From: Myxococcota bacterium
Lineage (GTDB): Bacteria > Myxococcota_A > Polyangia > Palsa-1104 > JAEUJZ01
DNA: 64,000 nt
Assembly (NCBI GenBank): GCA_025057315.1
Contig: JANWXW010000147.1
Location: 12,420 to 76,419, forward strand
Direction of reading: 5' to 3'
In this document: piece after piece, positions 9,159 through 61,748 of the stretch
Layout: each line of letters opens with the position of its first letter
How positions within the stretch are numbered: the stretch's first letter is position 1
The notes under the pieces: model-generated
Databases searched by the model: none
What the model was told of the DNA's origin: nothing
What the model saw: the letters and a program-made list of their open reading frames with translations, nothing else
Position numbers and translations under genes: made by a program

Positions 9159-10359
9159 CTATAGTGTAGCGCGTCTAGCCGCCAGCTCATCCAGCCGCTG
9201 CGCCACGGCGCGCGGGCTGAGGGTGCCCTTGTAGACATACAGGGCCGCCGGCAGGTGGTCGGGCAGGGCCTCCTGGCTGACGCGCAGCCGGCTGCTGAGG
9301 CAGAACAGCACCGGCTCGCGCAGCCCGCGCTCCACCAGCTCGATCCGCCGCCACACCGCCTCGCGGCTCCAGTAGCCGAGCACCTCCAGGTGGATGCGGG
9401 GCCCGTCCGGGCGCTCAAAGAGCAGGTCGGGCACGCACACGCCCACCCCGGGCAGGTGGAGCAAGGCCGGGGCCAGCTGGACCTGCCACGGGGTGCCCAG
9501 CGCGGGGAAGGCGCGCAGCAAGGCCTCCACCTCCTGGGGCAGCGGTGCCTCGGGCTGGTCCGCACCGGGGCCCTGTCCCTGGACGTGCAGCTGCAACGGC
9601 TGCCGCTCCTTGCCCCAGCGCACCTGGGCCGTCAGGCAGAAGCGATCGCAGGCCAGCAGCGCGGGCAGCGCCAGGGCCAGCTGGAGGCCATAGCGGGTCA
9701 CCGAATCGAACAAGCTGTAGGGGCCGTCCAGCTCGATGCGGTAGGCGCCGTCCTGGGCGGGGTGGATGCGAAACAGCAGGCGCAAAAACTTCAGCCAGCG
9801 GAACAGCTGGCGGTAGGTGGCGGCGCGGGCGCACTCGACCTCGACCACCACGCGCACGGCGCGCAGCAGCACGGCCTGCACCTGCGCCAGGTCGTAGCTG
9901 TCCACCAGGGCCTCGGCGGTCAGCGGCTCTAGGTCCACCAGCACGTGGGCCTCCCGCAGGTCGGCATACAGGCTGCGTAGCAGCGCCGCCGGATCCAGAC
10001 CGTGGGAGGCGGCCACCTCGGCCAGGATCTGCTCGCGGTCGAAGACGCCCTGCTGCCGTGCCGCCGCCGCGCGCAGAAACACCTCGCTGCGCAGCCTCTC
10101 GGGCGAGGGCCCCTGGGCTACGTCGAACCGACAGCGGTCCTCGATGAGCTTGCGCAGCCCCTCGGCCAAGCGCTGCTCGCGCGGGGCATACGCGACCTGG
10201 CCCAGCGCCTCCTGCAGCTCCTGACGGGTGCGGCCCAGGTGGGCGCGGGTGATCTCCAGGTAGGCCGCGGCCAGCTCCAGGGCACGGGCGCGCAGACGGG
10301 CATCCAGCGGCAGCACGTGCAGCTGGCCCGCCCGTCGATCCACCCGCACGCGCACCAGC

Positions 10360-10373
<14 letters not shown>
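9159..10373 (-). CDS. DUF790 / Bax1-like endonuclease (XPB-associated nuclease family)
   Basis: 404 aa, TTG start overlapping the XPB stop by 14 nt. The C-terminal region (LEVLGYWSREAV) resembles the Bax1 nuclease core. It is a partner of the adjacent XPB-like helicase. Confidence 0.5.
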
Positions 10374-11729
<1,356 letters not shown>

Positions 11730-11777
11730 TCTCAGAGGGGGGCGGGACCAGCGCGTGGTCTTTGCCGGCGCTTGTAG

Positions 11778-11889
11778 CAGAAGCGGGCCGCCGCCGCCAG
11801 GCCATCAGAGCGGGATCGACCCGCTGCGGGGCGCTGTGCACCTCCATCTTGATCGCCGAAGCGGGCCGCCGCCAGGCCATCAGAGCGGG
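11778..11889. repeat. two copies of a ~35-45-nt imperfect direct repeat (GAAGCGGGCCGCCGCC[GCC]AGGCCATCAGAGCGGG) with a 77-nt period. The second copy contains the stop codon of the GspE-like gene.
   Basis: Read directly from the sequence. Also visible as the duplicated LMAWRRPASA in the shadow ORF. Confidence 0.6.
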
Positions 11890-13616
11890 CAGGCGGCGCG
11901 GACCTCGCCCAGGTCGGTCAGGCCCTCTAGGGCCTTGGCGATGCCGTCCTGGCGCAGGGTGCGCATGCCGTCCTGACAGGCCTGGGCGTGCAGCTCGTTG
12001 ACTGGGGCGCGCCCCCGCAGCAGCCGGCGCAGCGCCGGGCTGCCCTGCAACAGCTCGTGCAGCGCCAGGCGCCCCTGAAAGCCGCTCCCCTGGCAGATCT
12101 CGCAGCCCACCGGGCGGTACAGGGGCGCATCCGGTGCCACGCCCAGCTCGGCCAGGCCAGGCTCGCCGTACTCGGCGGCCAGGGCCCGCCACTCCGCCTG
12201 CTGCAGCTCGTAGGGCTGCAGGCACGCCTCGCACAGCTTGCGCACCAGGCGCTGGGCCAGCACGCCGAGCAGCGCAGTGCCTAGGTGGTCGGGATCGCCC
12301 CCCAGCTCCAGCAGGACCTGCAGCGCCTCGGCCGCCCCGTGCGCGCGCAGCCCGGCCAGCACCAGATGCCCGCTCAAGGCTGCCTCCAGGGCCGCCCCAC
12401 AGGCCTGCCGGTCGCGCAGCTCGCCGATCATGATCACGTCGGGATCGGCCCGCAGCAGGCCGCGCACCGCGGCCGGCACGTCCAGGCCCGGCTGCAGCGA
12501 CACCTGGCGCAGTCCGGGCTGGACCCGCTCCACCGGGTCCTCGACGGTGCCAATCATCCGGTCGGGGCGATTGAGGTGGTTCAGGGCCGCATGCAGCGTG
12601 GTGGTGCGCCCTGAGCGGGGCGGACCCGCAACGAGCAGCAGCCCCCAGGGCCGCTCCAGCAGCTGCTGCAGGCCCACCAGGTTGCGCTCAGAGAACCGAA
12701 GCTGCTCCAAGGTCGGCGGCTGGCCGCCGGGCAGCACATGCAGCACCACGTCCTGCAGGCCGCCGTGCAGCGGCACGGTGGCCACCCGCAGCACGATGTC
12801 GCTGCCACCCTCGCGGCGGATGCGCAGCATCCCCTGGCGAGGCAGCGTCTCGTCCTGGGGCTCCAGGCTGCTCAGGCTCTTGATGCAGGACAGCATCGGC
12901 GGGTGGTACTCGGCGGGCAGGGTGCGGAACGGCCGCAGCCGACCATCCAGACGCAGGCGGACCTGAACCGGCCCCTGCTCGGCCGAAGGCTCGATGTGGA
13001 TGTCGGTGGCGCCGCGCTCGCAGGCCTCGCCGAGCAGGCCCGCCACCAGCGCGACCACCTGGTCCTCGTCCGGGGGCGGCTCGCGCACCTCCTCGATGAC
13101 CACCTCCACCGAGGGCTCCTCGGGCACCGGCTCGGTCGCCGGGGTGGCCGCCGGCGGGCTGGCCGCGGTCCCGTAGAGGTGCCCGTAGAAATGATCGATG
13201 AAGGCCTCGATGTCCTCGCGCAGGCCCACGCAGTACTCAATCTGCATCCCGGGCAGCAGCGCGCGCACCTCATCGCGCTTGATAAGGTGGTTGGGGTCAT
13301 CGATGAGCACCGTCACCCCATGGTCATGGGCCTTGATGGGCACCCAGCGATCCGTGCGCAGGTAGCCGGGCTTGAGGCTGCGCAGCACCGCCCGCGGCGG
13401 CGGCAGGCGGGGGTCAAAGGGAACATAGGGGCAGCCGTAGTAGTGGGCCAGCGCCGCGCCGATGTGGGCCTTGGGCACCCGGAAGCGCCGCATCAGGACC
13501 TGCTCGACGTCCAGCTGGAGCTCCTGGGCCTCGGCAGCGGCTTGGAGCAGATCCGCCTCGTTGATCAGCCCCTGCTCGATGAGCAGGTCGAACTTGGTGC
13601 GGATGCTCGCGGTCAT
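11880..13616 (-). CDS. GspE/PilB-family secretion-type ATPase homologue with degenerate nucleotide-binding motifs
   Basis: N-terminal GspII_E_N-like domain. Walker A reads GPPRSGRTT instead of the usual GPTGSGKTT. Asp box DPDVIMIGELRD is intact. His box is degraded (LAGLRAHG). Tetracysteine motif present (CEAC...CEIC). Confidence 0.8.
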   Translation of the reverse strand: MTASIRTKFDLLIEQGLINEADLLQAAAEAQELQLDVEQVLMRRFRVPKAHIGAALAHYYGCPYVPFDPRLPPPRAVLRSLKPGYLRTDRWVPIKAHDHGVTVLIDDPNHLIKRDEVRALLPGMQIEYCVGLREDIEAFIDHFYGHLYGTAASPPAATPATEPVPEEPSVEVVIEEVREPPPDEDQVVALVAGLLGEACERGATDIHIEPSAEQGPVQVRLRLDGRLRPFRTLPAEYHPPMLSCIKSLSSLEPQDETLPRQGMLRIRREGGSDIVLRVATVPLHGGLQDVVLHVLPGGQPPTLEQLRFSERNLVGLQQLLERPWGLLLVAGPPRSGRTTTLHAALNHLNRPDRMIGTVEDPVERVQPGLRQVSLQPGLDVPAAVRGLLRADPDVIMIGELRDRQACGAALEAALSGHLVLAGLRAHGAAEALQVLLELGGDPDHLGTALLGVLAQRLVRKLCEACLQPYELQQAEWRALAAEYGEPGLAELGVAPDAPLYRPVGCEICQGSGFQGRLALHELLQGSPALRRLLRGRAPVNELHAQACQDGMRTLRQDGIAKALEGLTDLGEVRAACPL

Positions 13617-13655
13617 GGGTCCCTGGGCAGCCCTGGGGCTCGAGGCAGCCGGGTG

Positions 13656-29462: not shown

Positions 29463-29579
29463 GGCGACCTCCGGGCTCTGACAGGGTCGGTGCGTCAGCC
29501 AGCCTAGCGCCCGCATCCGCAGCGCACAAGGGGCAGCGATGTCGCGCTGCAGCAAGCCAAGCCCCGCAGGGAGTCGATC

Positions 29580-29665
29580 AGGGCAGGGCCAAGAAGAAGA
29601 TTAAATTTGTAATTTATACACCATGATAAAATCATGCTGATTGAACTATCGACCGAGGTAATGAC
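29580..29665 (+). promoter_or_regulatory. AT-rich (about 30% GC) island, likely promoter of the 29666 gene
   Basis: aagaagattaaatttgtaatttatacaccatgataaaatcatgctgattgaa. A sharp GC drop in a 70% GC genome, with TATA-like hexamers. Confidence 0.4.
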
Positions 29666-32578
29666 ATGCGGCCAGGTCTGTTTTTCATCGTTCTCGGATG
29701 GGTCCTCGCGATGGTTCCACCGAGGGCAGCGGCGGCCCCCATCGACATCGAAGCGAACCGGGCTAGCGCTCCCCCGCGGAGCGATCAAGGACACGGCATT
29801 TGCACCACGGCCGTCCATTTGAACCAGGACGATCTGCTCACGGGCGTGGAGGTCGCTGAGGCCTACCTGGCACAGTCTGTCGGCATGAACCGCGTGGACG
29901 GCAAGGTAAGCTTCCCCTACGCCACCATCGATTTCCGCAACAGTGCTCCCACGGCGGGGGGGGACTACCCTGACAACCGTCCGTTGCCCTTTACCGCGCT
30001 GCCTGGTACCCCCCAGGTCGGCAACGAACGCAACATCGCCATGCGGGTGCGCGGCTACATCAATATCTATCGTCCGGGCATCTTCACCTTCGCCGTGCTG
30101 GCAGATGATGGCTACCGCCTCCGCATCGGTGGCAAGGACATCCTCAGCTCGGTGGGGTTTGCGTCGCTACGCGACAGCCGACAGGTGCGCTTCGCCGCAC
30201 AGGGCCTGTATCCAATTGAACTAGTTTACTTTCAGAACACAGGTCCGGCGATGTTGGAACTGTCCTATGCCGACCGCGAAGACCTGGAGGTGCAGCACTC
30301 GCCGACGCCGCTCGGCGGGGGGTTCAGTCTGGTCCCCCAGGCTGCACTCTTTTCGGCCGTGGCCGGCCGCAGCGACTGCACCGAGTGCAACGACGACGCC
30401 ACCTGTGGGCCCACCATGGGCCGCTATTGCCGCGATGGCCTCTGCCAGCCCTGCATCGTGCCTGCCCGCTGCGGCCAGAACTGCCAGCCCTGTCCTGCCA
30501 GCCAGCCGGTGTGCAACGGCAGCGCCTGCGTCGAGTGCAGCGCAAGCGACACCAGCGTCTGCGACCGAAAGGGCTTTGTCTGCGAGCTGAACACTTGCCG
30601 TCCGTGCCTGGCCGACTCCGAGTGCGGCAATGGCCGCATCTGTGACATTGCGTTCGGACAGTGCATTCCCCGGCCGAACCTGCGCTATGCCGGCGGCTGC
30701 AGCGTGGCGCCCGGCGGGCAGGAGCCTGCTCTGGTGGTACCGCTGCTGTTGCTCGCCCTCGGCCTGCTGATCGTGGGCGCGCAGCGGCTTCGCTCTCGCT
30801 CCGCGCTGGCTGCGCTGGTGTTGCTGGTGGGGGCGGGCCAGGCCCGTGCGCAGCAGTCGCTCGAGGTGGCCCGGTTCAATGCCCAGACGTTTCGCCCAGC
30901 GATGGGCCCCGGCAACGTGTTTACCGTCGAGGGGACCCTTATGCCGCGCCGGCTTTTTCCCTTCGGTGGTCTCTTCTTTCAGTACGCCCACCACCCGCTG
31001 CGTCTGGTGGTGGAGGGTACCGGCGAAACCTATGCCTACCCCGTCTCGCTGATGTTGACCGCACACCTGATGCCTGGCTTCGGCATCACGCGCTGGTGGT
31101 CGGTGGGCCTCGACCTGCCCGTGGTCATGTACCAAGGCTTTGACGAGCGCACGCCCGCAGCAGACACCAACTTTACCATCCCCGCAGCTGGCGGAGTCGG
31201 CGATCTGCGCCTGATGACCAAGTTCCGCATTCTCAACAACGAGGGCGGCGGCTTCGGCCTGGCGGCGGTGCCTCAGTTTGTCTTTCCCACCGGTGCCGCC
31301 GCATCGCCCAACTCGTTTCGCAGCGAGGACACCGTTGGCATCGAGCCACGCATCGCCGCCGACTACCGCTTTCGCAACGGCATCTTCATTGCGCTGAACC
31401 TTGGCTACTGGCTCCGCACCTACAACCGCAACGTGGACTTCGGCGTGGTCCGCGTGGCCGATCAGATCCGTTATGCATTGGGCATGGGGGCACCCATCCT
31501 GAAGGGATTTGGCGTGGCCGGCGAGATGAGCGGCGCGATCAGCCTCAGCCGTCTGGATGGCGGGCCGCTCTACTCGCCGCTGGAGGGCTTTGCGGGCCTG
31601 CGCTACACGCACTCCTCAGGCCTGGAGGCAAGCGTGGGCGGCGGTGGCGCCTTTGTCTCTGCCGTCGGAATACCGCTGTTTCGCGCTTTCGCCAGCATCG
31701 CCTTCGTGCCCACCGGCAAGCGGCCGGAGCGCAGGGTCGAGCCCCGGCCTGAACTGCAAGACCTGGATCCCGATGGCGATGGCGTACAGGGCGTAGAGGA
31801 CGAGTGCCCCAGCAAGGCCGGGCCGCGTGAAAACCGCGGTTGTCCAGACAAGGACCAGGACCGAGACGGCATCGTGGACCGCCTCGACCGGTGCCCGACG
31901 GAGGCCGGCCCGAGCGAAAACGAGGGCTGCCCGGACACCGATAGCGACCGAGACGGCATTGTGGATCGGCTCGACAAGTGCCCCACCGAAAGCGGTGTGG
32001 CGCAACACGATGGCTGCCCCGAGCTTGACACCGACAAGGACGGTATCCTTGACAAGGACGACCGGTGCCCGGCCCAGCCCGGCGTCGCTGACAACCAGGG
32101 CTGCCCGGACACCGACGAGGACAAGGACACCATTGTGGACCGGCTCGACCGGTGCCCGAAGGAGGCCGGCCCGCGTGAGACGAGTGGCTGCCCCGTGCTC
32201 CAGGTCAGCGACAACCGCGTGAGGCTGGTGCTGCCCATCCGCTTTGCTCCAGGCAAAGACACACCGCAGAAGGAGTCCGACCAGGTGATCATGGCCCTGG
32301 CCCAGCTTATGGCCCAGGACAGCTCGATCAAGAAGCTCCAGATCGAGGTCCCAGCCAGCGGTGACAAGAAGACAGCCAAGAAGCTGGCCGGCAAGCGGGC
32401 CAAGAACCTGCTCGGCTTGCTGGTGGATGCCGAGGTGTCCAAGAAGCGGCTGGCCATCAAGGCGGCCAAGAGGCTGGAGGGCGACGAGATCACCGAGGTC
32501 ACTCTCAACAGGGGCAAGGTCAAGGACAAGAAGGGCAAAAAGGCCAAAGCGGGTAAAAAGGGCAAAAAGGCCAAATAG
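29666..32578 (+). CDS. 970-aa ORF. N-terminal part: signal peptide, PA14-like domain, Cys-rich repeats and a MYXO-CTERM-like GC...hydrophobic...RLRSR segment. It continues in frame into an OmpA-family outer-membrane protein (second signal peptide, beta-barrel, 5x thrombospondin type-3 Ca-binding repeats, divergent OmpA-like C-domain, poly-Lys tail).
   Basis: PA14-like GYINIYRPGIFTFAVLADDGYRLRIGG. CxxC-rich repeats at aa 238-333. AGGCSVAPGG...LLLALGLLIVGAQRLRSR at aa 342-378. Then ALAALVLLVGAGQARAQQ. DxDxDGxxDxxDxCP repeated five times. Tail KDKKGKKAKAGKKGKKAK. Confidence 0.7.
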   Translation: MRPGLFFIVLGWVLAMVPPRAAAAPIDIEANRASAPPRSDQGHGICTTAVHLNQDDLLTGVEVAEAYLAQSVGMNRVDGKVSFPYATIDFRNSAPTAGGDYPDNRPLPFTALPGTPQVGNERNIAMRVRGYINIYRPGIFTFAVLADDGYRLRIGGKDILSSVGFASLRDSRQVRFAAQGLYPIELVYFQNTGPAMLELSYADREDLEVQHSPTPLGGGFSLVPQAALFSAVAGRSDCTECNDDATCGPTMGRYCRDGLCQPCIVPARCGQNCQPCPASQPVCNGSACVECSASDTSVCDRKGFVCELNTCRPCLADSECGNGRICDIAFGQCIPRPNLRYAGGCSVAPGGQEPALVVPLLLLALGLLIVGAQRLRSRSALAALVLLVGAGQARAQQSLEVARFNAQTFRPAMGPGNVFTVEGTLMPRRLFPFGGLFFQYAHHPLRLVVEGTGETYAYPVSLMLTAHLMPGFGITRWWSVGLDLPVVMYQGFDERTPAADTNFTIPAAGGVGDLRLMTKFRILNNEGGGFGLAAVPQFVFPTGAAASPNSFRSEDTVGIEPRIAADYRFRNGIFIALNLGYWLRTYNRNVDFGVVRVADQIRYALGMGAPILKGFGVAGEMSGAISLSRLDGGPLYSPLEGFAGLRYTHSSGLEASVGGGGAFVSAVGIPLFRAFASIAFVPTGKRPERRVEPRPELQDLDPDGDGVQGVEDECPSKAGPRENRGCPDKDQDRDGIVDRLDRCPTEAGPSENEGCPDTDSDRDGIVDRLDKCPTESGVAQHDGCPELDTDKDGILDKDDRCPAQPGVADNQGCPDTDEDKDTIVDRLDRCPKEAGPRETSGCPVLQVSDNRVRLVLPIRFAPGKDTPQKESDQVIMALAQLMAQDSSIKKLQIEVPASGDKKTAKKLAGKRAKNLLGLLVDAEVSKKRLAIKAAKRLEGDEITEVTLNRGKVKDKKGKKAKAGKKGKKAK

Positions 32579-32644: not shown

Positions 32645-33610
32645 TTGCTCATGCGCGCACCCCCTCTCTTGCTCGCCTTGCTGGCGTCCTGCTCTCTTTC
32701 CTCCCTCGACGATGAATCCCCTCCATCCGGCCAGGACCGCACGGAGGGCACCATCCGGCTGGAGGCCGAGCCGATCACCTTGCAGCCAGGGCAGGAGGTC
32801 ACCCGCTGCATCACGGCGCGGCTGCCGACCCACGCGCCGGTGGATGTGGTGCGCATCCAAGCGCGCCAGTCAGGCACCCATCACGTCGTGTTCTACCGAG
32901 AGGAGCAGGACGTCCCCCCCAGCCCGACGCGCGACTGCCGGCCCCTGGACATCCTCGGGGAAGGTGTTCGCATCGAGCGCGTGCCCCTATTTATCGGCGA
33001 GACGCCGGAGGCCGAGCTGACCATGCCCCCAGGCGTTGCCTACCGCCTGCGCCCCGGGGCCGCCTACACCATTGAGGGCCACTACATGAATGCCACGCCT
33101 GCGCCGCTGACCACAAGCGCGGTGATCTTGCTTCACACCGCTCCTGCTGGCGCCCAAGTCGTCGAGGCTGATATGTTGTTTTATGCTTCCGTAAGCGCGC
33201 TCAACAAGGTCTACGATGGCCGCCAGCGAGGGTTGCCGCCCGGTGTCACAACCACCATCAGCCCACCCGGCTTCCGCGCGCCGCGTGAGGGGATCAAGCT
33301 CTTCGCGCTGACCTCCCACCAGCACCGAACGGGCATAGATTTTGTCATCAGCAAATCCCGTGGGCGGGACGACCCGGGGCAGCTGCTGTACCGCAACCAG
33401 GACTGGGCCCATCCTCCGCTGCTGCGCTTTCCCGATGAGGCGCTGATCACGTTTGACAGCAGCAAGGGAGAGGGCCTGCGCTGGGAGTGCACCTACCACA
33501 ACACAAACGACTTTTACCTGACCTTTGGGCAGTCAGCGGTACGCAACGAGATGTGCATCCTGTGGGGGTACTACTTCCCAGGACGCGGCTTCGACCTCCA
33601 CTTCGAATAA
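32645..33610 (+). CDS. lipoprotein with a copper type II ascorbate-dependent monooxygenase (PHM/DBH)-like fold
   Basis: Signal peptide plus LASC lipobox. HH (GTHHVV), H (GHYMNA), HxH (SHQHRTG) and M (NEMC), with inter-ligand spacings of 62/76/75 aa, close to the PHM CuH (H107/H108/H172) and CuM (H242/H244/M314) sites. Confidence 0.5.
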   Translation: MLMRAPPLLLALLASCSLSSLDDESPPSGQDRTEGTIRLEAEPITLQPGQEVTRCITARLPTHAPVDVVRIQARQSGTHHVVFYREEQDVPPSPTRDCRPLDILGEGVRIERVPLFIGETPEAELTMPPGVAYRLRPGAAYTIEGHYMNATPAPLTTSAVILLHTAPAGAQVVEADMLFYASVSALNKVYDGRQRGLPPGVTTTISPPGFRAPREGIKLFALTSHQHRTGIDFVISKSRGRDDPGQLLYRNQDWAHPPLLRFPDEALITFDSSKGEGLRWECTYHNTNDFYLTFGQSAVRNEMCILWGYYFPGRGFDLHFE

Positions 33611-33630: not shown

Positions 33631-34341
33631 TTAGCGGTAGCGAAGCAAGGCCACCCGACCGGCCAGCTCCGCGATGTCAGAAGGCAGCTGGCCGCCGCCC
33701 TCCAGGTGCTGGATCAGCAGCTGGAGCGAGGTGCGGGCGAAGGCACAGAGGATATCGCCCGCGCTGACGCCAGGGGCTGAGGTGGGCGACTGGAGGGGCG
33801 CCGGGGCAGCTGCAGCGGGAGAGGGCGGGGCCGGGGGAGGCGGGGCTGGTTTTGGCTCGGCCTCGATCTGCGCCGGTAACGCGCCGCCATCCTTGGCGAT
33901 CTGTGCGTCGATGACCTGCAGGACATCCTGGGCATGGGTGTAGACGTTCGCCCGGGGGAAGATGTGGCAGATGGTGCCCTTCTGGTTCAGGATGAACGTA
34001 GAGCGCATCTGACCGCGCTCGCTCCACGTCCCCCACTGCGTGGCGACCGCATGGTCTTGGTCGGAGCAGAGATCGAAGGGGATGTTGTTGTCCTTGACAA
34101 ATTGCGCCAGCGCCGACACCGAATCCGGCGAGATGCCGACGATACCGACGCGGCGCTTCTGGAACTCGCCGTACAGGTCCCGGAACCCGTTCACCTGCCG
34201 GGTACAGCCCGGGCTGCCCGCCACCAGGAAGAAAAACACGACCACGTAGTCGTTCTTCGCTTGCAGCTGGGACAGGCGGGTCATCCCGTGGTCGTGGCAC
34301 GAGAGCACAAAATCAGGGCCGTGGGTGCCAACTTCCAGCAT
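33631..34341 (-). CDS. peroxiredoxin (Bcp/AhpC-TSA family) with an 80-aa C-terminal extension
   Basis: Thioredoxin-fold Prx core with peroxidatic Cys in PGCT (AGSPGCTRQ). Followed by a Pro/Ala-rich linker and an extra C-terminal module of about 50 aa. Confidence 0.7.
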   Translation of the reverse strand: MLEVGTHGPDFVLSCHDHGMTRLSQLQAKNDYVVVFFFLVAGSPGCTRQVNGFRDLYGEFQKRRVGIVGISPDSVSALAQFVKDNNIPFDLCSDQDHAVATQWGTWSERGQMRSTFILNQKGTICHIFPRANVYTHAQDVLQVIDAQIAKDGGALPAQIEAEPKPAPPPPAPPSPAAAAPAPLQSPTSAPGVSAGDILCAFARTSLQLLIQHLEGGGQLPSDIAELAGRVALLRYR

Positions 34342-54101: not shown

Positions 54102-57100
54102 TCAGGGAGACAGGGGAATCACGGCCGCGCTCTCCTCGGCGGCATCGACCTGGCGAGCGTAGGCCACAAACTCGTCGTATTCAGCCGGCTCAACCCGCCG
54201 GGCGGGCAGGAAAAACTCGACATGGAGGCGCAGCGTGCTGCCCTCCAGCACCACTTGCTGGCAGAAGCGACCGAAGGTCGACAGGCGAACCTCGGGCCCT
54301 GCCCGCACTGGGCCCACGCCCCGGGGGAGCTCGACGCGTGCCTCCAGCACTACGGGCACGACGTAGCCAAGTTGGAGGGGAGAGCGGCGCGTCGGGACAC
54401 CCACATACCTTTTGGCCAGCAGCGCGGGAAAGGGCGCCGGCAGGACCAGCTCGGTCCGTCCCTGGGCCATGCGGCGCCGCGCCAGCCGGGGCGCACGGAA
54501 GGCGTACTCGACGACAAGCGGCGCGTCGTCCTCCCGCGGGCCATGGCGCAGCTGCTCCAGTGTGGCCCCCGGAAAGAAAAAGCCCAGCAAGCGCTGCTCC
54601 ACCTCCTTGTGGAACTGGTCGGCAGAGAGGCGGTCCAGTCCCTCTCGCCACTCCAGGGCCGGCCAGCCCGTGAGCCGCTCGCGCACCTGGACCTCCCCGC
54701 CCCCGTCCAGCCCCAGGCGCATGGTCATTTCAATCTGGCGACCGTCCCGCGGGATCGACAGCCCCGGCACCAGGCCGCCACCCTCCTCGGGCAGTGCCAC
54801 CTTGCCCAGCAGCGCAGCGGGTGGTCTGCTCTGCCCCAGCTGGCCGATGCGCAGGGCCGTGCCGCCACGCAGCAAGGGCCGCACCAGTCCCGTCGGAGCA
54901 TGACGGTACGCGGGATCCAGCCACAGGAGGGGATGGCCATCCGGGCCCTGGCCCGGCGCCACGGCAAGCAGCACCTCGCTGTACAGCTCGGTGGGAGGCA
55001 ACGGTCCGTCCAGACGGGGCGCGGTCACGGGACGTACGAGCCACAGCTCGACGGGAATCCCGGCCAGACGCAGCAGCGCCGCGGTCAGCAGGTGAGCGTT
55101 GCCTTCGCGCCGTGCCAGGATCGACGTTGCTGCCTCGTCCATGTCGCCGCCTGGCTTGATGGCGCGCCGCACCCAAGCGTCGATGCGTCGGACCTGCGAC
55201 ACCACACCGGCGATCCCCGTCGGTCCCACGGGACCAATGGCCTCGGCAGCAGCACGGCGCAGCTCGGCGTTGGCGCGCAGGCTCAGAAACCACCGGTCGC
55301 GCAGATAGTCGCGCCAGCCCTGGAGCGTCACGCCAGAGGCCACCCGCACAGACGGGACCCACTCTGCCAGCAGCGCCTCCGCCTGGGGCAGGTCAAGCTG
55401 AAGCCGCGGCACGCCCCGACGTGCCCAAAGGCTATGGCGCAGGTCTCCGTGTCGCTCCACCTGAGCCTGGGGTGGATCGGGCCCGCGCAGGTCGATCTGC
55501 AGCGGCATCTCCCAGGGCGTCACCAGCAGGTACTCGGTCCGGTCGAGCGCCGCATCCACCGAGGCAAAATAAAAGCGCTCGGCGAGGAACCCACCGCCGA
55601 AGGCTGCAGCTGGCTCCTCGCGGTCGATGTACTCGAACTCGACGTAGTCGCCGGCTTCTAGATCGGGTGCCGAGATGCTGTCCTTGTCTGCAAATTCCTC
55701 GGGCTCGCGGGTGGTGCCATCGGCCTTCACCGTGCGCAGGGTCAGCACCTCGGCCCCCTCAGGGAGCCGCACCTCGCCGAATCGGTCGATGCCGTCCTTG
55801 GACAGCACATGCACGATGTTGTGCGTGAGCGTCCATCGCGTCCCGTCGGGAAAGACACGGACCACCGTGCGATCGAGGACGATGACGGCGGCATCCTGCG
55901 GTGCCGTCGCCGAGCGCCGCTGGTGGTACTGTTGGATGACCTCCTGCCCGTCGATGCGGTATGCTTCCATAGGCGGTGGCACACCGAGCACCTGCAGGGC
56001 CCGATGGAGATCCTGGGATGCAGGGGCATCAGCCAAGCCCGCCCGCAGCACCGCCTCTGCCTCCTGGGATCGGCCCTGGTCGAGCAGAACATTGGCGAGG
56101 TGGACACGGTAGCCAGGGGTGGAGGGCGAACGACCGACCAGGCGCCGCAGGCACCGCTCGGCTGCAGCCAGCTCCCGCCGGGCCACGAGCACCTCGACCA
56201 ACGATACCAGAAGAGCCTCGTCATCTGGCCGGAGGCGGAGCAGACGCTCGTATTCGGCGCGCGCCTCGACGAGCCGGCCCGCGGCGCGCAGCTCCTCGGC
56301 GTATCGCTCGGTGTAAGGGTTGCATGCTGCCAGCTGGCGCGCTGCCTGCAGCGCGCCGCGTTCGTCTTTGATATCCCGGCGCGCTTCGATGCGTGCCTCC
56401 CAGGTCTCGCACGCCGATGGGGCCAGGGCCAGCGCCTCGTCCAGGGCCTGCTCTGCCTCCAGCGTCCAACCCCGTGACCGCAAGATGTGGTGTCGCAGGA
56501 GCAGCGCTTGCCAGGCCCGTTGCTGGCTGGCCGGTCTTGCATCGAGAATCTCGAGCGCCAGCTCGTCGTGATCGTCGTCGTGCTCCAGACGAGCGAGCTG
56601 GATGCGCGCCCGCAGCAGGGCGGGGTCGGCCTCCAGGGTGGCGCCCAGCAGGCGGCGGATCTGATCGCGTACGATGCGGGCCGGGCGACTGCTGTCCTCG
56701 GCAAGCAGGGCCGCCTCCAGCAGGCGCAGGGAGCTCAGGCCCGGTGCACCAGCGCGCTCGGCAGCGCTCAGACCTGCCTCGATGGCTCCCCGGATGTAGG
56801 CCTGCTGCGTCTGGAGCAGGGCGTGCGTGATCACCTCAGCTCGCTGGCGCGGCCTGGGCAGGGCCGACAGCTCCCTGGGCCACACCTGCACGGGGCCGGT
56901 GCTGGCAGCCGGCGCCCGCTCTGGCGGACCATCAAAAAAGCGCGCACCTGGCAGCGACAGCTGCAACCGCGCCCGGCCCCAGGGCATAGAGACCTTGAAG
57001 GCCAGGGCATGCCAGCCACGGGGCGCTCGGATCCACAGCATTCGCCGGCGCTCGGGCTCGGTGTCTACATACCGGATCACCCCGTCCACCGACAGGGCCC

Positions 57101-57890
57101 ACGTCTCGTTTCCGGTCTCTACCGTCAGGGGGAGGGCGCCTCCCGGGAACCAGGTCCAGGCCACGGCATAGACGACACCCCGGCGGCCGAGCGGTCCCTG
57201 CAGCGTCAGCTCGCAGCCGCGGACCTGGTGCCGCACATACCGGATGCGGGACGGGTCACGAGCCGGATCGTCCGGGGCAAAATGCCGCATGAGGTCCACC
57301 CGTGGCAGGTGTCCGTGCGGGCCGGTGCTAAATAGCACCTGTGGGCAGCCGCGGGCAGCATCCACGGCCTCGGCCTCCGCCTCGCGTCGGGCCAGCCGCA
57401 GCAGCTGCGCCGCAAGGGCCGCAAGCAGCTGTCGCGCTTCGATCGGCAGGTGAGATGAACGCCGCCACAGCCGCAGGACGCGCTCCAGATGGTCTCGTTC
57501 TTCGGCTGCCGAGCCGGGCGGCTCGCTGACCAGGGCCAATAGCCGGTGGGCGGCCATCTCCGCCGCGGCAGGTGCCCACGGATCAGCAGCACGGACGCTC
57601 TCCAGCAGACGCAGCCACCCCTGTCGGGCTAGGGCCACCTGCGCGGTATCGTGCGCCCGCAGCGCCAGACCCAGCAGGGTGCGGGCGTCCCGCAGGCCCA
57701 GAGACTCGGCCTGTCGCAGCGCTTCCTCACCAGCCTCTGGTTTGCCCAGAGAAAACTGAATCCAGCCGGCGTCTCGTAGCTCGGCGGGCGAGCCGGCATG
57801 GCGCGAGCCCTGCGGCGCCCGGTCCCTGAGCGACACCGCGGCGCAGCCGCACAGGAACAGAAGAAGCAGGCCCAGGCCGGCTCTACTCAT
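54102..57890 (-). CDS. giant TPR-repeat lipoprotein with DUF3857-like, transglutaminase-like (catalytic Cys lost) and DUF3858-like domains
   Basis: Start ATG 57890 (MSRAGLGLLLLFLCGC), 8-nt overlap with the upstream paralogue. The TGase-core position reads ARREGNAHLLTAALL instead of GDCKDKA. Confidence 0.65.
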   Translation of the reverse strand: MSRAGLGLLLLFLCGCAAVSLRDRAPQGSRHAGSPAELRDAGWIQFSLGKPEAGEEALRQAESLGLRDARTLLGLALRAHDTAQVALARQGWLRLLESVRAADPWAPAAAEMAAHRLLALVSEPPGSAAEERDHLERVLRLWRRSSHLPIEARQLLAALAAQLLRLARREAEAEAVDAARGCPQVLFSTGPHGHLPRVDLMRHFAPDDPARDPSRIRYVRHQVRGCELTLQGPLGRRGVVYAVAWTWFPGGALPLTVETGNETWALSVDGVIRYVDTEPERRRMLWIRAPRGWHALAFKVSMPWGRARLQLSLPGARFFDGPPERAPAASTGPVQVWPRELSALPRPRQRAEVITHALLQTQQAYIRGAIEAGLSAAERAGAPGLSSLRLLEAALLAEDSSRPARIVRDQIRRLLGATLEADPALLRARIQLARLEHDDDHDELALEILDARPASQQRAWQALLLRHHILRSRGWTLEAEQALDEALALAPSACETWEARIEARRDIKDERGALQAARQLAACNPYTERYAEELRAAGRLVEARAEYERLLRLRPDDEALLVSLVEVLVARRELAAAERCLRRLVGRSPSTPGYRVHLANVLLDQGRSQEAEAVLRAGLADAPASQDLHRALQVLGVPPPMEAYRIDGQEVIQQYHQRRSATAPQDAAVIVLDRTVVRVFPDGTRWTLTHNIVHVLSKDGIDRFGEVRLPEGAEVLTLRTVKADGTTREPEEFADKDSISAPDLEAGDYVEFEYIDREEPAAAFGGGFLAERFYFASVDAALDRTEYLLVTPWEMPLQIDLRGPDPPQAQVERHGDLRHSLWARRGVPRLQLDLPQAEALLAEWVPSVRVASGVTLQGWRDYLRDRWFLSLRANAELRRAAAEAIGPVGPTGIAGVVSQVRRIDAWVRRAIKPGGDMDEAATSILARREGNAHLLTAALLRLAGIPVELWLVRPVTAPRLDGPLPPTELYSEVLLAVAPGQGPDGHPLLWLDPAYRHAPTGLVRPLLRGGTALRIGQLGQSRPPAALLGKVALPEEGGGLVPGLSIPRDGRQIEMTMRLGLDGGGEVQVRERLTGWPALEWREGLDRLSADQFHKEVEQRLLGFFFPGATLEQLRHGPREDDAPLVVEYAFRAPRLARRRMAQGRTELVLPAPFPALLAKRYVGVPTRRSPLQLGYVVPVVLEARVELPRGVGPVRAGPEVRLSTFGRFCQQVVLEGSTLRLHVEFFLPARRVEPAEYDEFVAYARQVDAAEESAAVIPLSP

Positions 57891-60800
57891 GGCCCACCAC
57901 CAGCTCCTGCGCCACCGCCGCATCCACCTCGGTGCAGAAGCGCCGGAATGCCTCGTAGTCGGCCCTGGCGATGCGATGGCGCTCGACCTGCAGGTCAGCG
58001 GTGATGACCACCTCGATGCCCTGCCTGCTGCGCTGGCTCGCCACCTCCAGCCAGAAGCGACCAAAGGGCGACTCCAGCCGCTGTGCCACGGGCAGACGCT
58101 TGGGCTGCAGGCCCGGTGGCAGCTGGAGCTTGACCACCTCGATGCTCCGCCACGGAAAGCCCAAAATCAGGTCATGGCTCCGGCGCGACAGGCGGGCGAA
58201 GTTACGCAGTAGCTCCGGGTCTCGGCCCAGGGGCCGCAGCACCAGCTCAGGGCGCCGGTTCGGATCCATAGGGCTGGGCTGCCCCCAGCTTGGTGCGTGG
58301 ACCATCCCTCGCAGCACCACCGGGCGCTCCAGGTCCTCCACGCCGGACAAGCTGACCCGCCTAACCTGTACGCTGGGAAAGTGCTCATTCCATGCCTTCT
58401 CGTAGCGCTCTGCCCGCTCCGCCTCCACCTCGTAATGCTCCCGCCACCGCTGCGCCTCCTGCCCGGCCACCTGCGTCGTCTCAGACACCTCTGCACTGCC
58501 GTCCGGGTGGAGCGCCACGTGCAGTTCCCTCCGCACGACGTTGCGGGCGGCCGGCAGCACCGGAGTTCGGGCCAGGTGGCCCCGTCCGTTCCAGGGCGGC
58601 CGTGGGTCCGACAAGATGAGCACAACAATGTCTTGGTCCTGCTCGGGAAGCTCCTCCGAGCCTGAGAACTCGGCCGTGCCGTCCAAGTACAGTTCCAGCG
58701 CAGGGACAAACACCAGAGCATGGTCGAAGGCGGCCAGCGAGGCCGGTGCCGGCTCGATGTCGCCAGCGCGCCGCGTCCGGGCCAGCACCAGCGAGCTGTC
58801 GATGCCCACCTCACGCAGCATTACCTTGAGCAGCACCGCCTTGTCTTTGCAGTCGCCAAACTTCCGGGCAAACACCTGCGTAGCCTTGTAGGGCTTGTAT
58901 CCGTGGATGCCGAACTCCAGGCCCACATAGCGGGTCTTGCGGACCACCAAGTTGTAGATCGCGCGGACCTTGGCTCGGGCGTCTCGCAACCCGGCCACGG
59001 CAGCCCTGGCGGCAGCTGCGATCTCAGGGCTGCTGCGGAGCTGCTCCTCGACGAGCCCCAAGTACCAGCGGGCGAGGTCCTCCCAGCTCCGCCAGGTCGA
59101 GACGTGCACGAACGAGGCAACCTCTGTGGGGCCGGGCATGTCAGGCTCGTTCTCGATGCGCGGCACACCCCGGGCGCGGAAGCAGTACTCGCGCTCCTTG
59201 CCACCGGCCAGGAGGCGCTCGCTGCGCTCGACGGTCCAGCCCGGCCCCGAACGCGGCGTGTTAAAGTAAAGAGGTCGGCGCTTCACGCTCGGCTCGGACA
59301 CCAGCACCACGTACCGGCTGTCCAGGCGCGGCACCTCCTCTTGCAGCAGGTGAAGGTCGCCAAAGTAGTCTGCCAGCAGGTTGCGCCGGCCGATGTCGGC
59401 GACCACGTACTCGATGTCGATCACGTCGCCGGGCTGCAGGCCAGCAAAGTGCAGAGTCAGGGCGCGCACGTCATAGTAGAGCCGATACCAGGGCTCCGAG
59501 GCGTCTTGCTCCTCCTGCTGCGCCGTCTGCTGCACTTGGCCGTCGGCCTTGTACACCTTGGCTGCCTTGACCTGCACCGACTGGGTCTCTGGAGTGTAGC
59601 GGATCTCGTAGCTGGCGTACTCGCGGGCACCCTGCTCGTCCAGAATTTGCACCACGCGCTGGGTGAAGACCTCCGAGAGGCCGTTGTCATGCACCCGGGT
59701 CACCCTCTGGTCGAGAAGGACCCGCGCCGGGTCCCCTGTGGGGGTGTTTGCTGCTGCCTCGCGAATGAGTCGCCGTACGTCCTCGCGGTAGGCCTGCACC
59801 AGGTCCTCTCCCTGCCGGGCCGCGGGCACAAGGTGGGCCAGGTAGGTGCGCAGCTCGGGGTTTTGCGGGCGCAGCTCCAGCGAGCGCTGCAGCGATGCCA
59901 GGGCCTCCTCGGTGCGACCGAGTCGGCGCAGCAGACGCGCCCGCAGCTCGTGCAGCTCTGGCTCACCAGGGAGGGCCTCCAGAAGGGCGTCCAGCTCGGC
60001 CAACGCCTTGGCCAGCCGGCCAGCCCCCTCTAGGAGCTCGACCCGCTGCTGATGGGCCCAGAGGAGCTCAGGCCAGCGCTGCAGGATGCGCTCCAGCCAC
60101 CCCAGTGCTCCGTCGGTGTCGCCGCGGCTGAGGCTGCGATCCAGCAGCTGCCGGTGCGCCTCCAGATCGTCCGGCTCCAGCTCCATCAGCCGCAGATATC
60201 CTTGCTCCACCTCTTGCATCCGCCCCCGCTGCATGGCCAGCGCCAGGCGTGCCCGCAGCAGCCGCAGCGACCGACCAGGCAACTCGGCCAGCATCCGCTC
60301 CGCCGCGGCGGGCAGGCCCCGATCGGCTTGCAGCTGCGCGAGCTGGATGACCGCTGGATGCAAACTAGGATCCAGCTGCACCGCCTCGCGATAGGCCTGC
60401 TCCGCCAGCCCTTCGCGCTGGGCACTTTCATAGACCTGTCCGAGGGCCAGAAACAGCCGCGCCCACTCTTCAGCGGAGCCACCCGGCAGCGTACGAGCCC
60501 CCTCTAGCACCCATCGGCGATAGTCTAAATCCGCATTGGCCATCGCCAGCAGCCACGCCCCCTCCAGCGTCGGGTCCAACCGCTGCGCCTCGGCAAGCAA
60601 AGCCTCGTGCTGCCGATCCGACTCGTCTTGCGGCATTATATAGAGAAGATAAATTCCCAAATCTCGCAACGCCTGTGACCGCTCTGCATGGGGTGCAGCC
60701 CCAAGTGCGGCGCGCAGCTGGTGCAGCAGGCTCGAGGGACGCACGCGGGCGGGCAGGGCCCGGGGGATGCGCCAGCCCACCTGCGGGGGGCGCTCTGAGA

Positions 60801-61638
60801 AGATCAGACCAGGCATGGGCCTGCCGTCAGGGGTCGTGAGGCGCAGCAGGAACGACAGCGGGCCCTCCCCGCTGGAGATCTTGACCAGGATGCGGTTCCA
60901 GCCCGGAAGCAACGTCGCGCCGCCTACGTCCTGATCGATGCGCAGCGGGCGGTAGACATCGTGGTCGATGACCGGCGGGCCGCGATTTACCCACACCTTG
61001 ATCGGACCGGCCGAGCCGACGCGGACGGCCACGGCGGCCGGTTGCGAGCGATCGCTGCGCACGTAGCAGGCGGCATAGGCCGTGACCCAGCTGTTGGGAC
61101 GGAAGGCGTTGTCGAGCAGAATTCGGCCATCGCGGGCCAGCGCGATCCGGGGCACAGGCCGCCAGGTCGGGGGCAGGACCCGGTTGCGTCCCTCATACGT
61201 GACCCCTGCGCCTGGGATGGCTTCCTCCTGTTCCGGTGGGTAGACCGTGCTGTGGCCGCGCCGGCCCTCGTTGTCGAAGGGACCTATGATCTCGCAGGCC
61301 TGGACCAGGCCCAAGGTGGCGTCAGATGCCGTGCGGGCATCGGGTCCGGCGGGGCGCCATTGCCATAGCAGCGCGTGGGCATAAGCACGCACATCTGGGG
61401 ACAACCTGGGGTTGTCTGCCGCCGCCGCGACCATCTTCCAAAGGGCCTCCCTGTCGTCGACCAGCTCCCATAGTTCCGACAGCCCCAGCAGCGGCACCAG
61501 CCCGGCCGCAGCGTGCGGACGGGAGGTGGCCAGGTGATGCAGGCGCGCCGCTCGGGCTGCCACCTCTCGATCATAGGCAGAGGCACTCGCGGCCACCGGG
61601 ACGAGCAAGGCCAGCAGGGCCAGGGCACGGCGGGGCAT
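57883..61638 (-). CDS. giant TPR-repeat secreted protein with DUF3857-like, transglutaminase-like (intact Cys, KFGDCKDKAVLL) and DUF3858-like domains
   Basis: Start ATG 61638 (MPRRALALLALLVPVAASASA, a signal peptide). Multiple TPR repeats. Transglutaminase-like core with Cys in GDCKDKA. Confidence 0.7.
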   Translation of the reverse strand: MPRRALALLALLVPVAASASAYDREVAARAARLHHLATSRPHAAAGLVPLLGLSELWELVDDREALWKMVAAAADNPRLSPDVRAYAHALLWQWRPAGPDARTASDATLGLVQACEIIGPFDNEGRRGHSTVYPPEQEEAIPGAGVTYEGRNRVLPPTWRPVPRIALARDGRILLDNAFRPNSWVTAYAACYVRSDRSQPAAVAVRVGSAGPIKVWVNRGPPVIDHDVYRPLRIDQDVGGATLLPGWNRILVKISSGEGPLSFLLRLTTPDGRPMPGLIFSERPPQVGWRIPRALPARVRPSSLLHQLRAALGAAPHAERSQALRDLGIYLLYIMPQDESDRQHEALLAEAQRLDPTLEGAWLLAMANADLDYRRWVLEGARTLPGGSAEEWARLFLALGQVYESAQREGLAEQAYREAVQLDPSLHPAVIQLAQLQADRGLPAAAERMLAELPGRSLRLLRARLALAMQRGRMQEVEQGYLRLMELEPDDLEAHRQLLDRSLSRGDTDGALGWLERILQRWPELLWAHQQRVELLEGAGRLAKALAELDALLEALPGEPELHELRARLLRRLGRTEEALASLQRSLELRPQNPELRTYLAHLVPAARQGEDLVQAYREDVRRLIREAAANTPTGDPARVLLDQRVTRVHDNGLSEVFTQRVVQILDEQGAREYASYEIRYTPETQSVQVKAAKVYKADGQVQQTAQQEEQDASEPWYRLYYDVRALTLHFAGLQPGDVIDIEYVVADIGRRNLLADYFGDLHLLQEEVPRLDSRYVVLVSEPSVKRRPLYFNTPRSGPGWTVERSERLLAGGKEREYCFRARGVPRIENEPDMPGPTEVASFVHVSTWRSWEDLARWYLGLVEEQLRSSPEIAAAARAAVAGLRDARAKVRAIYNLVVRKTRYVGLEFGIHGYKPYKATQVFARKFGDCKDKAVLLKVMLREVGIDSSLVLARTRRAGDIEPAPASLAAFDHALVFVPALELYLDGTAEFSGSEELPEQDQDIVVLILSDPRPPWNGRGHLARTPVLPAARNVVRRELHVALHPDGSAEVSETTQVAGQEAQRWREHYEVEAERAERYEKAWNEHFPSVQVRRVSLSGVEDLERPVVLRGMVHAPSWGQPSPMDPNRRPELVLRPLGRDPELLRNFARLSRRSHDLILGFPWRSIEVVKLQLPPGLQPKRLPVAQRLESPFGRFWLEVASQRSRQGIEVVITADLQVERHRIARADYEAFRRFCTEVDAAVAQELVVGHE

Positions 61639-61748
61639 AGATGGTGCAGAATAGCGGCAAAGCGCTGCGCCGTCGATGGCTCTAGGGCAAAGAGCCGGTG
61701 GACATGCAAGCCATGCCAGCGGACCGAAGCGGGACAGCAGCGGCTCCC

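Follow-up and report, generated by a model that had tools for sequence, protein, structure and literature searches.

Here, we describe an open reading frame (ORF) in which a homolog of the adhesin TraA is joined in frame to a homolog of the outer membrane (OM) protein TraB. It lies in a 64-kb stretch of DNA (the window) from a metagenome-assembled genome (MAG) of the Myxococcota. TraA and TraB are the kin-recognition and OM fusion machinery of social myxobacteria. The ORF, at 29666-32578 on the + strand, encodes 970 amino acids (aa) without an in-frame stop, ends at the stop codon 32576-32578, and has a GC content at third codon positions (GC3) of 0.81, as is usual for coding DNA in this window. 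An earlier reading made from the letters alone (the sequence-only reading) had described it as a single frame joining a PA14/Cys-repeat/MYXO-CTERM-like part to a thrombospondin type 3 (TSP3)/OmpA-type part, and translation and Pfam searches confirm this description. That reading missed that the halves are homologs of TraA and TraB and that the second hydrophobic segment at their junction corresponds to a TraB signal peptide with a conserved signal peptidase I site. The features are as follows, with a slash marking a predicted cleavage site here and below.

29655..29658, + strand: Shine-Dalgarno-like GAGG, 7 nucleotides (nt) 5' of the ATG at 29666, read from the sequence
29666..32578, + strand: ORF of the putative TraA-like/TraB-like precursor; the same unbroken ORF occurs in 17 diverged homologs
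29666..29734, + strand: N-terminal type I signal peptide, about aa 1-23, MRPGLFFIVLGWVLAMVPPRAAA/AP, from an alignment of homolog N-termini, with the cleavage site predicted
29738..30376, + strand: TraA-type PA14-like (variable) domain, about aa 25-237, from Pfam PA14, NCBIfam, BLASTP, and Foldseek
30377..30664, + strand: stalk of Cys-rich repeats, about aa 238-333, in which 14 Cys are invariant, aligning with the Cys region of canonical TraA
30692..30799, + strand: internal MYXO-CTERM-like sorting tag, aa 343-378, from an invariant GG-C, the TIGR03901 and JDVT-CTERM scores, and a helix in the AlphaFold2 (AF2) model
30800..30850, + strand: internal signal peptide (second helix), aa 379-395, SALAALVLLVGAGQARA, from BLASTP, conservation, and the AF2 helix 379-390
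30851..31711, + strand: TraB-type OM beta-barrel, about aa 396-682, from NCBIfam, Pfam, BLASTP, AF2, and Foldseek
31754..32194, + strand: five TSP3 (DxDxDG) repeats, about aa 697-843, from Pfam TSP_3 (five stretches, 62.8 bits)
32198..32512, + strand: degenerate OmpA-like (peptidoglycan-associated) domain, about aa 845-949, weak in Pfam, with the fold from AF2 and Foldseek
32513..32575, + strand: Lys-rich C-terminal tail KVKDKKGKKAKAGKKGKKAK, read from sequence and alignment

The N-terminal half resembles TraA in sequence and in predicted fold. Its best NCBIfam match is TraA (NF033759, E 5e-22), and TIGR04566 (TraA_Nterm) also matches; the score with NF033759 (exchanger_TraA), 78.2 bits, is far under the curated cut-off of 750. 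Pfam PA14 matches this half with 32.5 bits versus a cut-off of 24, and PF27866 (Myxo_TraA_N) is precomputed on the identical protein P0001 and on most homologs. As the canonical reference we used the locus L013, the TraB of which (P0040) scores 766 bits versus the 700-bit cut-off of NF033763. By BLASTP, the N-terminal half is 28% identical to the TraA of this locus over 396 residues (E 5e-25) in an alignment that spans the signal peptide, the PA14-like domain, and the Cys repeats. Foldseek matches its domain to the PA14 domains of Epa1A, Flo5, and MpAFP. The Cys stalk scores 20.8-22.1 bits with the Myxo_Cys_RPT model TIGR04201, under the 25-bit cut-off.

The C-terminal half has the same order as TraB, i.e., a signal peptide, an OM beta-barrel, TSP3 repeats, and an OmpA-like domain. 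TraB is its best NCBIfam match (NF033763; 324-327 bits, E 1e-96, cut-off 700), and it is 37% identical to canonical TraB over 386 residues (E 2e-67), in addition to a match over the TSP3/OmpA part. The barrel opens with an FNAQTFRP block that is largely invariant in the homologs, gives a Pfam match of the Phenol_MetA_deg type (31.3 bits), and is FapF-like with 12 strands in Foldseek (template modeling score up to 0.72, normalized to target), while the TSP3 and OmpA-like part matches the periplasmic portion of Capnocytophaga OmpA (5wtl, E 8e-15). The AF2 model, built from an 18-sequence alignment, has a mean predicted local distance difference test (pLDDT) value of 68.5, with 75-89 in the domain cores. 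It contains a beta-sandwich, the Cys stalk, helices at 357-371 and 379-390, barrel strands at 431-680, the TSP3 region, and an alpha/beta domain at aa 845-949 (pLDDT 82-89). In Pfam, OmpA scores 15-16 bits on this half, under the cut-off of 27.2. The sequence-only reading had spoken of a complete OmpA-type protein; the barrel, the five TSP_3 stretches, and the poly-Lys tail are borne out, whereas the OmpA domain is weak by sequence (15.2 versus 27.2 bits). Other family members, P0024 and the L008 paralog described below, keep a canonical OmpA domain. Homologs end in basic/His tails of the RRHHRR/KK or RRHHRRHKK type.

Compared to the Myxococcus xanthus traAB operon (MXAN_6895/6898), the window gene has the same A-then-B gene order and the same domain order in both halves, and homology is detectable in each of them. 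However, it consists of one ORF where the operon has two that overlap by ATGA, its tag has one Cys rather than the CC of Myxococcus TraA, its Cys stalk is shorter than in canonical TraA (395 aa versus 642 aa), and it differs from canonical TraB in its degenerate OmpA domain, its Lys-rich tail, and a barrel that belongs to a separate clade. Judged by these matches, the fusion ORF is clearly homologous to TraA/TraB and most likely works like them after processing.

The start of the ORF differs from the annotated one. The NCBI model of P0001 has 955 aa and starts 15 codons later, at Met16. Because all 17 homologs align from the upstream Met (MRxxL...) encoded by the ATG at 29666, and GAGG lies 7 nt upstream, the NCBI start is probably 15 codons too short and probably truncates the signal peptide. 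The GAGG is in the AT-rich intergenic region 29556-29665, where GC drops to 0.58. A23, A24, and P25 are nearly invariant across the aligned homolog N-termini, and the signal peptide aligns with that of canonical TraA. Opposite the fusion gene, antisense ORFs at 30221-31612 and 31603-32574 (− strand; 463 and 323 aa) look like shadow ORFs of high-GC coding DNA, and no sign was seen of their being genes.

The junction and its conservation

The sequence-only reading had recognized at aa 342-378 the pattern that normally ends MYXO-CTERM proteins, followed by a signal-peptide-like segment, and both are there: these residues read AGGCSVAPGGQEPALVVPLLLLALGLLIVGAQRLRSR and are followed by SALAALVLLVGAGQARA/QQ, the junction as a whole reading ...RYAGGCSVAPGGQEPALVVPLLLLALGLLIVGAQRLRSR-SALAALVLLVGAGQARA-QQSLEVARFNAQTFRP... 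The tripartite MYXO-CTERM layout is present, with the Cys motif (GG-C, 30692-30700), a hydrophobic helix (about aa 354-371), and an Arg cluster (RLRSR), downstream of an N-terminal signal peptide. In this respect, the gene is like known substrates of the MYXO-CTERM/MrtX system. It is unlike them in that the tag scores under the curated threshold and is not at the extreme C-terminus but at aa 343-378 of 970, with 592 residues after it. The tag of the close homolog P0007 passes TIGR03901 with 23.2 bits.

The stretch R-SALAALVLLVGAGQARA-QQ...FNAQTFRP aligns by BLASTP with canonical TraB from residue 2, and stand-alone relatives have an ordinary N-terminal signal peptide at the position of the second helix. 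From this alignment and these relatives, we infer that the second helix is the TraB signal peptide minus its Met, placed directly after the end of the TraA tag. Signal peptidase I is predicted to cut after A395 (ARA/QQ).

A search of 5.8 billion proteins returned the identical P0001 and at least 16 further proteins of 926-1060 aa with 36-58% identity, most of which cover about 97% of the query, from assemblies at NCBI, JGI, ENA, and Logan. A genome scan, which returned only MAGs, found the same ORF in uncultured Polyangia/'Myxococcales'. In the 18-sequence alignment of these homologs, G343, G344, C345, and A395 are invariant and Q396 is nearly so. Loop length between the two helices ranges from 5 to 40 aa, yet the loop is always in frame, net positive, and stop-free, and each homolog has two hydrophobic segments, a loop with 3-9 K+R versus 0-2 D+E, and a small-x-small site followed by Q or E. 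Because GG-C and A395 are invariant and Q396 nearly so despite an overall identity of only 40-57% among the 18 sequences, and because the two segments and the basic loop occur in all homologs, the junction pattern is, on the alignment, not chance. The sequence-only reading had considered that orthologs might keep an uninterrupted ORF with the internal segment as an ordinary transmembrane helix. They do keep the ORF unbroken; however, the segment is not an ordinary transmembrane helix, as it retains GG-C and AxA. Altogether, these comparisons indicate that the ORF is a genuine, evolutionarily maintained fusion of genes for a TraA-like adhesin and a TraB-like OM protein.

Two MAGs, JBBRLA01 (L001, L008) and CALFYE01 (L003, L006), contain two diverged fused paralogs each. 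The L008 paralog has two copies of a different beta-rich module instead of the TSP3 repeats, together with a canonical OmpA domain.

The traA and traB genes of M. xanthus share a four-base overlap (PMC3325183). In L013, TraA ends in ...LLLRRRARRA directly before its stop codon, the traB ATG overlaps this TGA (ATGA), and TraB starts MKRGIAMALLVVGAAASA/EEGRFDVQSFRP. Single-base insertions were modeled in silico over the last 30 nt of canonical traA, and 127 of 128 result in an unbroken TraA-TraB ORF with the fused layout.

Proposed processing and its alternatives

We think it likely that the ORF encodes a single precursor that is processed by a myxosortase and signal peptidase I into a TraA-like and a TraB-like protein. 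The topology of the junction would allow this. A signal peptide is N-in/C-out and has a basic n-region. According to Guo, Haft, and Wall (mBio 2025; PMC11980579), the helix of a MYXO-CTERM stops transfer in an N-out/C-in orientation, and its Arg cluster lies on the cytoplasmic side. We infer that a tag and a signal peptide back to back would form a topologically consistent hairpin in which one Arg cluster serves both helices. In our model, the N-terminal signal peptide would start Sec export of the PA14/Cys-repeat part, the MYXO-CTERM helix would stop transfer and leave the Arg-rich loop in the cytoplasm, and the second helix, with the Arg cluster as its n-region, would re-start export as an internal signal peptide, giving a helical hairpin in the inner membrane. 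Signal peptidase I would then cut between A395 and Q396, after AxA, freeing the TraB-like part for the OM, while Cys345 would be lipidated, and cleavage immediately behind it by an MrtX-type CPBP myxosortase would release the TraA-like adhesin to be displayed on the surface. What remains, a hairpin of about 50 residues, would be discarded. The mature proteins would not differ from those of a split traAB operon, except that they would be produced in a strict 1:1 ratio and at one and the same place in the membrane. The signal peptidase cut would be needed because only 10-20 residues lie between the second helix and the barrel, too few for crossing the periplasm.

Because the stretch from the Cys to the AxA would be discarded in split and fused forms alike, the fusion should be silent for the mature proteins and, therefore, able to arise and persist repeatedly. 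Its benefit is likely that both proteins are made together at one site in a strict 1:1 ratio, in line with the 1:1 complex that has been measured for TraA and TraB and in which they act (PMC12045341). MrtX is reported to be universal in Myxococcota; its cut in TraA falls at the MYXO-CTERM and still occurs when FLAG is added to the C-terminus (TraA-FLAG) (PMC11980579). The sequence-only reading had named an archaeosortase/exosortase-family 'MrtC' as the processing enzyme; the enzyme described is instead the CPBP-family myxosortase MrtX (PMC11980579). Its suggestion of a mid-protein processing site that releases a PA14 adhesin and an OM protein is the best supported of its three explanations, although it overlooked that two different proteases are implied.

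Several points weigh against processing into functional TraA- and TraB-like proteins. Every step is deduced from sequence. Both halves score far below the TraA and TraB cut-offs (78 versus 750 and 324 versus 700 bits), so any role in OM exchange is putative, and the OmpA-like domain is degenerate by sequence. The tag itself reaches 14.6-17.2 bits with TIGR03901, for which the cut-off is 20, and up to 24.2 bits with JDVT-CTERM, for which it is 27. MrtX would have to accept an Arg cluster with another helix and about 590 residues behind it, and no myxosortase/CPBP gene was found within the 64-kb window.

Among the alternatives, we give next to no weight to an artifact or pseudogene, in which two normally separate genes of this MAG would have been joined by an error of sequencing or assembly or by a recent frameshift. 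The source being a MAG would fit such an artifact, as would the 4-nt overlap of canonical traA and traB, which one inserted base turns into a fusion. However, the architecture is unbroken in at least 17 independent, diverged sequences (36-58% identity) from NCBI, JGI, ENA, and Logan assemblies, differences in loop length are all in frame, the two MAGs with two diverged fused paralogs each are not explained by it, and 45 further representatives across the family are fused. The loss of a stop codon or a sequencing error, as offered by the sequence-only reading, is thereby refuted. A low probability also attaches to the view that the TraB-like part is made mainly from an internal start of its own, e.g., the GTG at 30773-30775, which would yield MGAQRLRSRSALAALVLLVGAGQARA. 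This in-frame GTG (V369) lies before the Arg cluster, a start there would yield a textbook signal peptide, and myxobacterial genes often lack strong Shine-Dalgarno sites. However, no Shine-Dalgarno-like motif precedes it, whereas the true start has GAGG. In a check of all in-frame ATG, GTG, and TTG codons from the Cys to FNAQ, with the upstream 20 nt, in the window and seven related loci, no start codon was conserved and none had a well-placed Shine-Dalgarno site; L003, L004, and L005 have no start codon that would give both an n-region and an h-region. A separately initiated OmpA protein, a further suggestion of the sequence-only reading, is thus unsupported. The start codons that it pointed to are present as described (GTG 30818, TTG 30821, CTG 30824, and GTG 30827, a cluster at 30818-30829), but a start within 30818-30827 lies inside the hydrophobic core and would produce a truncated signal peptide without an n-region. 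Moreover, with no stop codon, ribosomes from upstream would read through, so that processing would be needed regardless. Near 30700-30850, neither promoter-like nor terminator-like sites were found, the terminator-like counts being within shuffle expectation, and a separate transcription unit for the TraB-like part was rejected on these grounds.

It is unlikely, although less remote, that the product is an inner membrane-anchored hairpin protein, either uncut, with both periplasmic domains tethered, or cut by signal peptidase only, with the PA14 part remaining a periplasmic protein anchored in the inner membrane because its tag is not a myxosortase substrate. The sub-threshold score of the tag, the lack of an mrtX gene in the window, and the degenerate OmpA-like domain are all compatible with this scenario. 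However, GG-C is invariant while neighboring residues vary freely, which is unexpected for a plain membrane anchor, close homologs pass the curated MYXO-CTERM model, and the AxA site is conserved. Moreover, a barrel held 10-20 residues from an inner membrane helix should be unable to enter the OM, and in TraA, the PA14/Cys-stalk adhesin is a module of the cell surface (PMC11980579).

Spread of the design, precedents, and implications

The barrel of the fusion (query aa 396-690) had 2370 matches at E≤1e-3 and 774 at E≤1e-10 in an exhaustive phmmer search of 1.84 billion representatives. We counted architectures in the 138 top representatives with a near-complete barrel match. In these, the barrel directly follows an N-terminal signal peptide in 93 and is internal in 45, with a start residue between 100 and 3550. 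In 41 of the 45, a hairpin lies directly before the barrel, in which a first hydrophobic segment, with a Cys in the 30 residues ahead of it, is followed by a loop of net positive charge, another hydrophobic segment, and a small-x-small site; P0130, one of the four exceptions, misses only through the segmentation by the script. The passengers upstream vary widely, reach lengths of about 3500 aa, and include regions rich in TSP3 or in Cys and others that look Ig-like. Of ten internal tags that were excised, five pass the curated cut-off for MYXO-CTERM (P0007 with 23.2 bits; four others with 20.3-23.9). In a tree of the barrels, built by neighbor joining from BLOSUM distances without support values, the window barrel groups in a clade that comprises about 25 proteins, most of them fused and TraA_N-bearing, with a few stand-alone ones nested among them; this clade is apart from the canonical TraB clade. 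The fused state is scattered over this tree with at least 22 parsimony changes, although this count is crude and, like the 'stand-alone' state of the root, rough.

P0095 (L014 1-3210, GCA_035637895.1) combines Myxo_TraA_N, TSP3, and OmpA in one ORF and is an independent fusion; it is a neighbor of canonical TraB in the barrel tree, has a Myxococcus-style CC tag motif, and is followed by a PhdYeFM-type antitoxin gene pair. P0019 (L012 3113-4780), P0173, and P0174 are stand-alone TraB-like proteins of 555-598 aa, 56-59% identical to the window barrel, that nest inside the mostly fused clade. Upstream of P0019 in L012 there is no TraA-like gene but VanY and an AAA ATPase, and a recent split as the origin of P0019, the closest stand-alone TraB-like relative, is unsupported for lack of an upstream traA. 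This suggests that the group lost its adhesin half secondarily or that the partner is encoded elsewhere.

The concept of an adhesin/barrel fusion with an internal tag is not new. MXAN_5598 of M. xanthus has been described as an 'atypical' protein with an internal MYXO-CTERM; the authors liken it to a combined TraA and TraB architecture, suggest a gene fusion as its origin, and, with reference to sortase/archaeosortase tags in mid-protein, propose processing and surface anchoring of the N-terminal part, although internal tags are called rare (PMC11980579). MXAN_5598 is also listed in published OM and OM vesicle proteomes of M. xanthus (PMC4158809). Like the window gene, MXAN_5598 combines an N-terminal adhesin, an internal MYXO-CTERM, and a C-terminal OM barrel with an OmpA domain in one ORF, a likeness drawn from its description only. 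Unlike the window gene, it is in a cell-division cluster next to ftsA/ftsZ; such synteny is absent both from the window and from beside P0095. A downstream signal peptide, a signal peptidase I site, and the freeing of the C-terminal part are not discussed in the available part of that paper, and a fused TraAB is unmentioned in the 2012, 2019, and 2023 papers. A non-C-terminal tripartite tag has been reported to work in a Haloferax volcanii ArtA substrate (Abdul Halim et al. 2017, ref. 46 in PMC11980579), which is similar in this respect; however, that system is an archaeal archaeosortase/PGF-CTERM system and, as judged by the title, does not include a second exported protein released by signal peptidase.

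Type Va autotransporters also join an N-terminal passenger or adhesin to a C-terminal 12-strand OM barrel in one polypeptide. However, they have no membrane hairpin, and their passenger crosses the OM through or with its own barrel, whereas the two parts encoded in the window are predicted to be separated at the inner membrane. The fbcH gene of Bradyrhizobium japonicum, which encodes a cytochrome b/c1 precursor, gives rise to two membrane or periplasmic proteins by cleavage at an internal signal peptide; these products, however, are unrelated to those of the fusion described here, remain in the inner membrane, and are not known to involve a sorting tag or a second protease. The TraA-type passenger in Myxococcus uses lipidation and the type II secretion system (T2SS) (PMC11980579). 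No T2SS is encoded beside the fusion gene, and the window contains only a T2SS-E/MshEN ATPase, about 16 kb away.

Against this background, what appears to be new is a conserved lineage that fuses actual TraA_N-type and TraB-type homologs. It also appears new that the second helix is a TraB signal peptide with a conserved signal peptidase I site, hence a putative two-protease polyprotein, that about one-third of the sampled TraB-like barrels use a joint of tag plus signal peptide, and that one base separates split and fused forms. More tentatively, the hairpin of Cys tag, basic loop, and signal peptide might be a general, repeatedly evolved polyprotein joint, one base change away and silent for the mature products, that couples unrelated adhesins to a TraB-like 12-strand barrel; we consider this generalization possible but doubtful. 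If it were true, TraB-like barrels would be general obligate 1:1 partners, as docking sites or export helpers, of myxosortase-lipidated surface proteins, and the division of a single precursor by two different membrane proteases, giving an outer-leaflet lipoprotein and an integral OM protein, would be routine.

The conserved natural fusion supports TraA and TraB as obligate partners in Rosetta-stone fashion, and it provides a natural test case for whether a sorting tag in mid-protein can be used by myxosortase and an internal signal peptide by signal peptidase I. Many large proteins annotated as 'OmpA family' or 'TSP3 repeat' in Myxococcota-like genomes may be two-protein precursors, and such fused ORFs should be neither flagged as frameshifts nor split during annotation. 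The hairpin could also serve as a compact module for the stoichiometric co-expression of a surface lipoprotein and an OM protein.

Downstream of the fusion gene, 67 nt after it and on the same strand, lies a gene for a secreted Cu2_monoox_C-like protein (32645-33610). Convergent with it, a gene at 33634-34341 (− strand) encodes a peroxiredoxin of the AhpC/TSA type, which is extended at its C-terminus by about 90 aa, among them a Pro/Ala-rich stretch (PKPAPPPPAPPSPAAAAPAP...). At 9162-12687 (− strand), a gene for a DUF790 protein adjoins one for an XPB/ERCC3-type helicase (ResIII, XPB_DRD, and ERCC3_RAD25_C), and the two resemble a nuclease-helicase pair of the Bax1-XPB type. Taken from stop to stop, the helicase ORF overlaps the T2SS-E/MshEN ATPase gene at 11883-13655, and the gene starts are thus uncertain. 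Two tandem TPR-repeat proteins of about 1355 aa each, encoded at 54105-61965 (− strand), may be paralogs; the second has, in addition, DUF3857, a transglutaminase core, and DUF3858. Finally, an ORF at 61752-63998 (− strand), which runs past the end of the window, fuses a Ser/Thr protein kinase domain to an FGE-sulfatase (formylglycine-generating-enzyme-like) domain.

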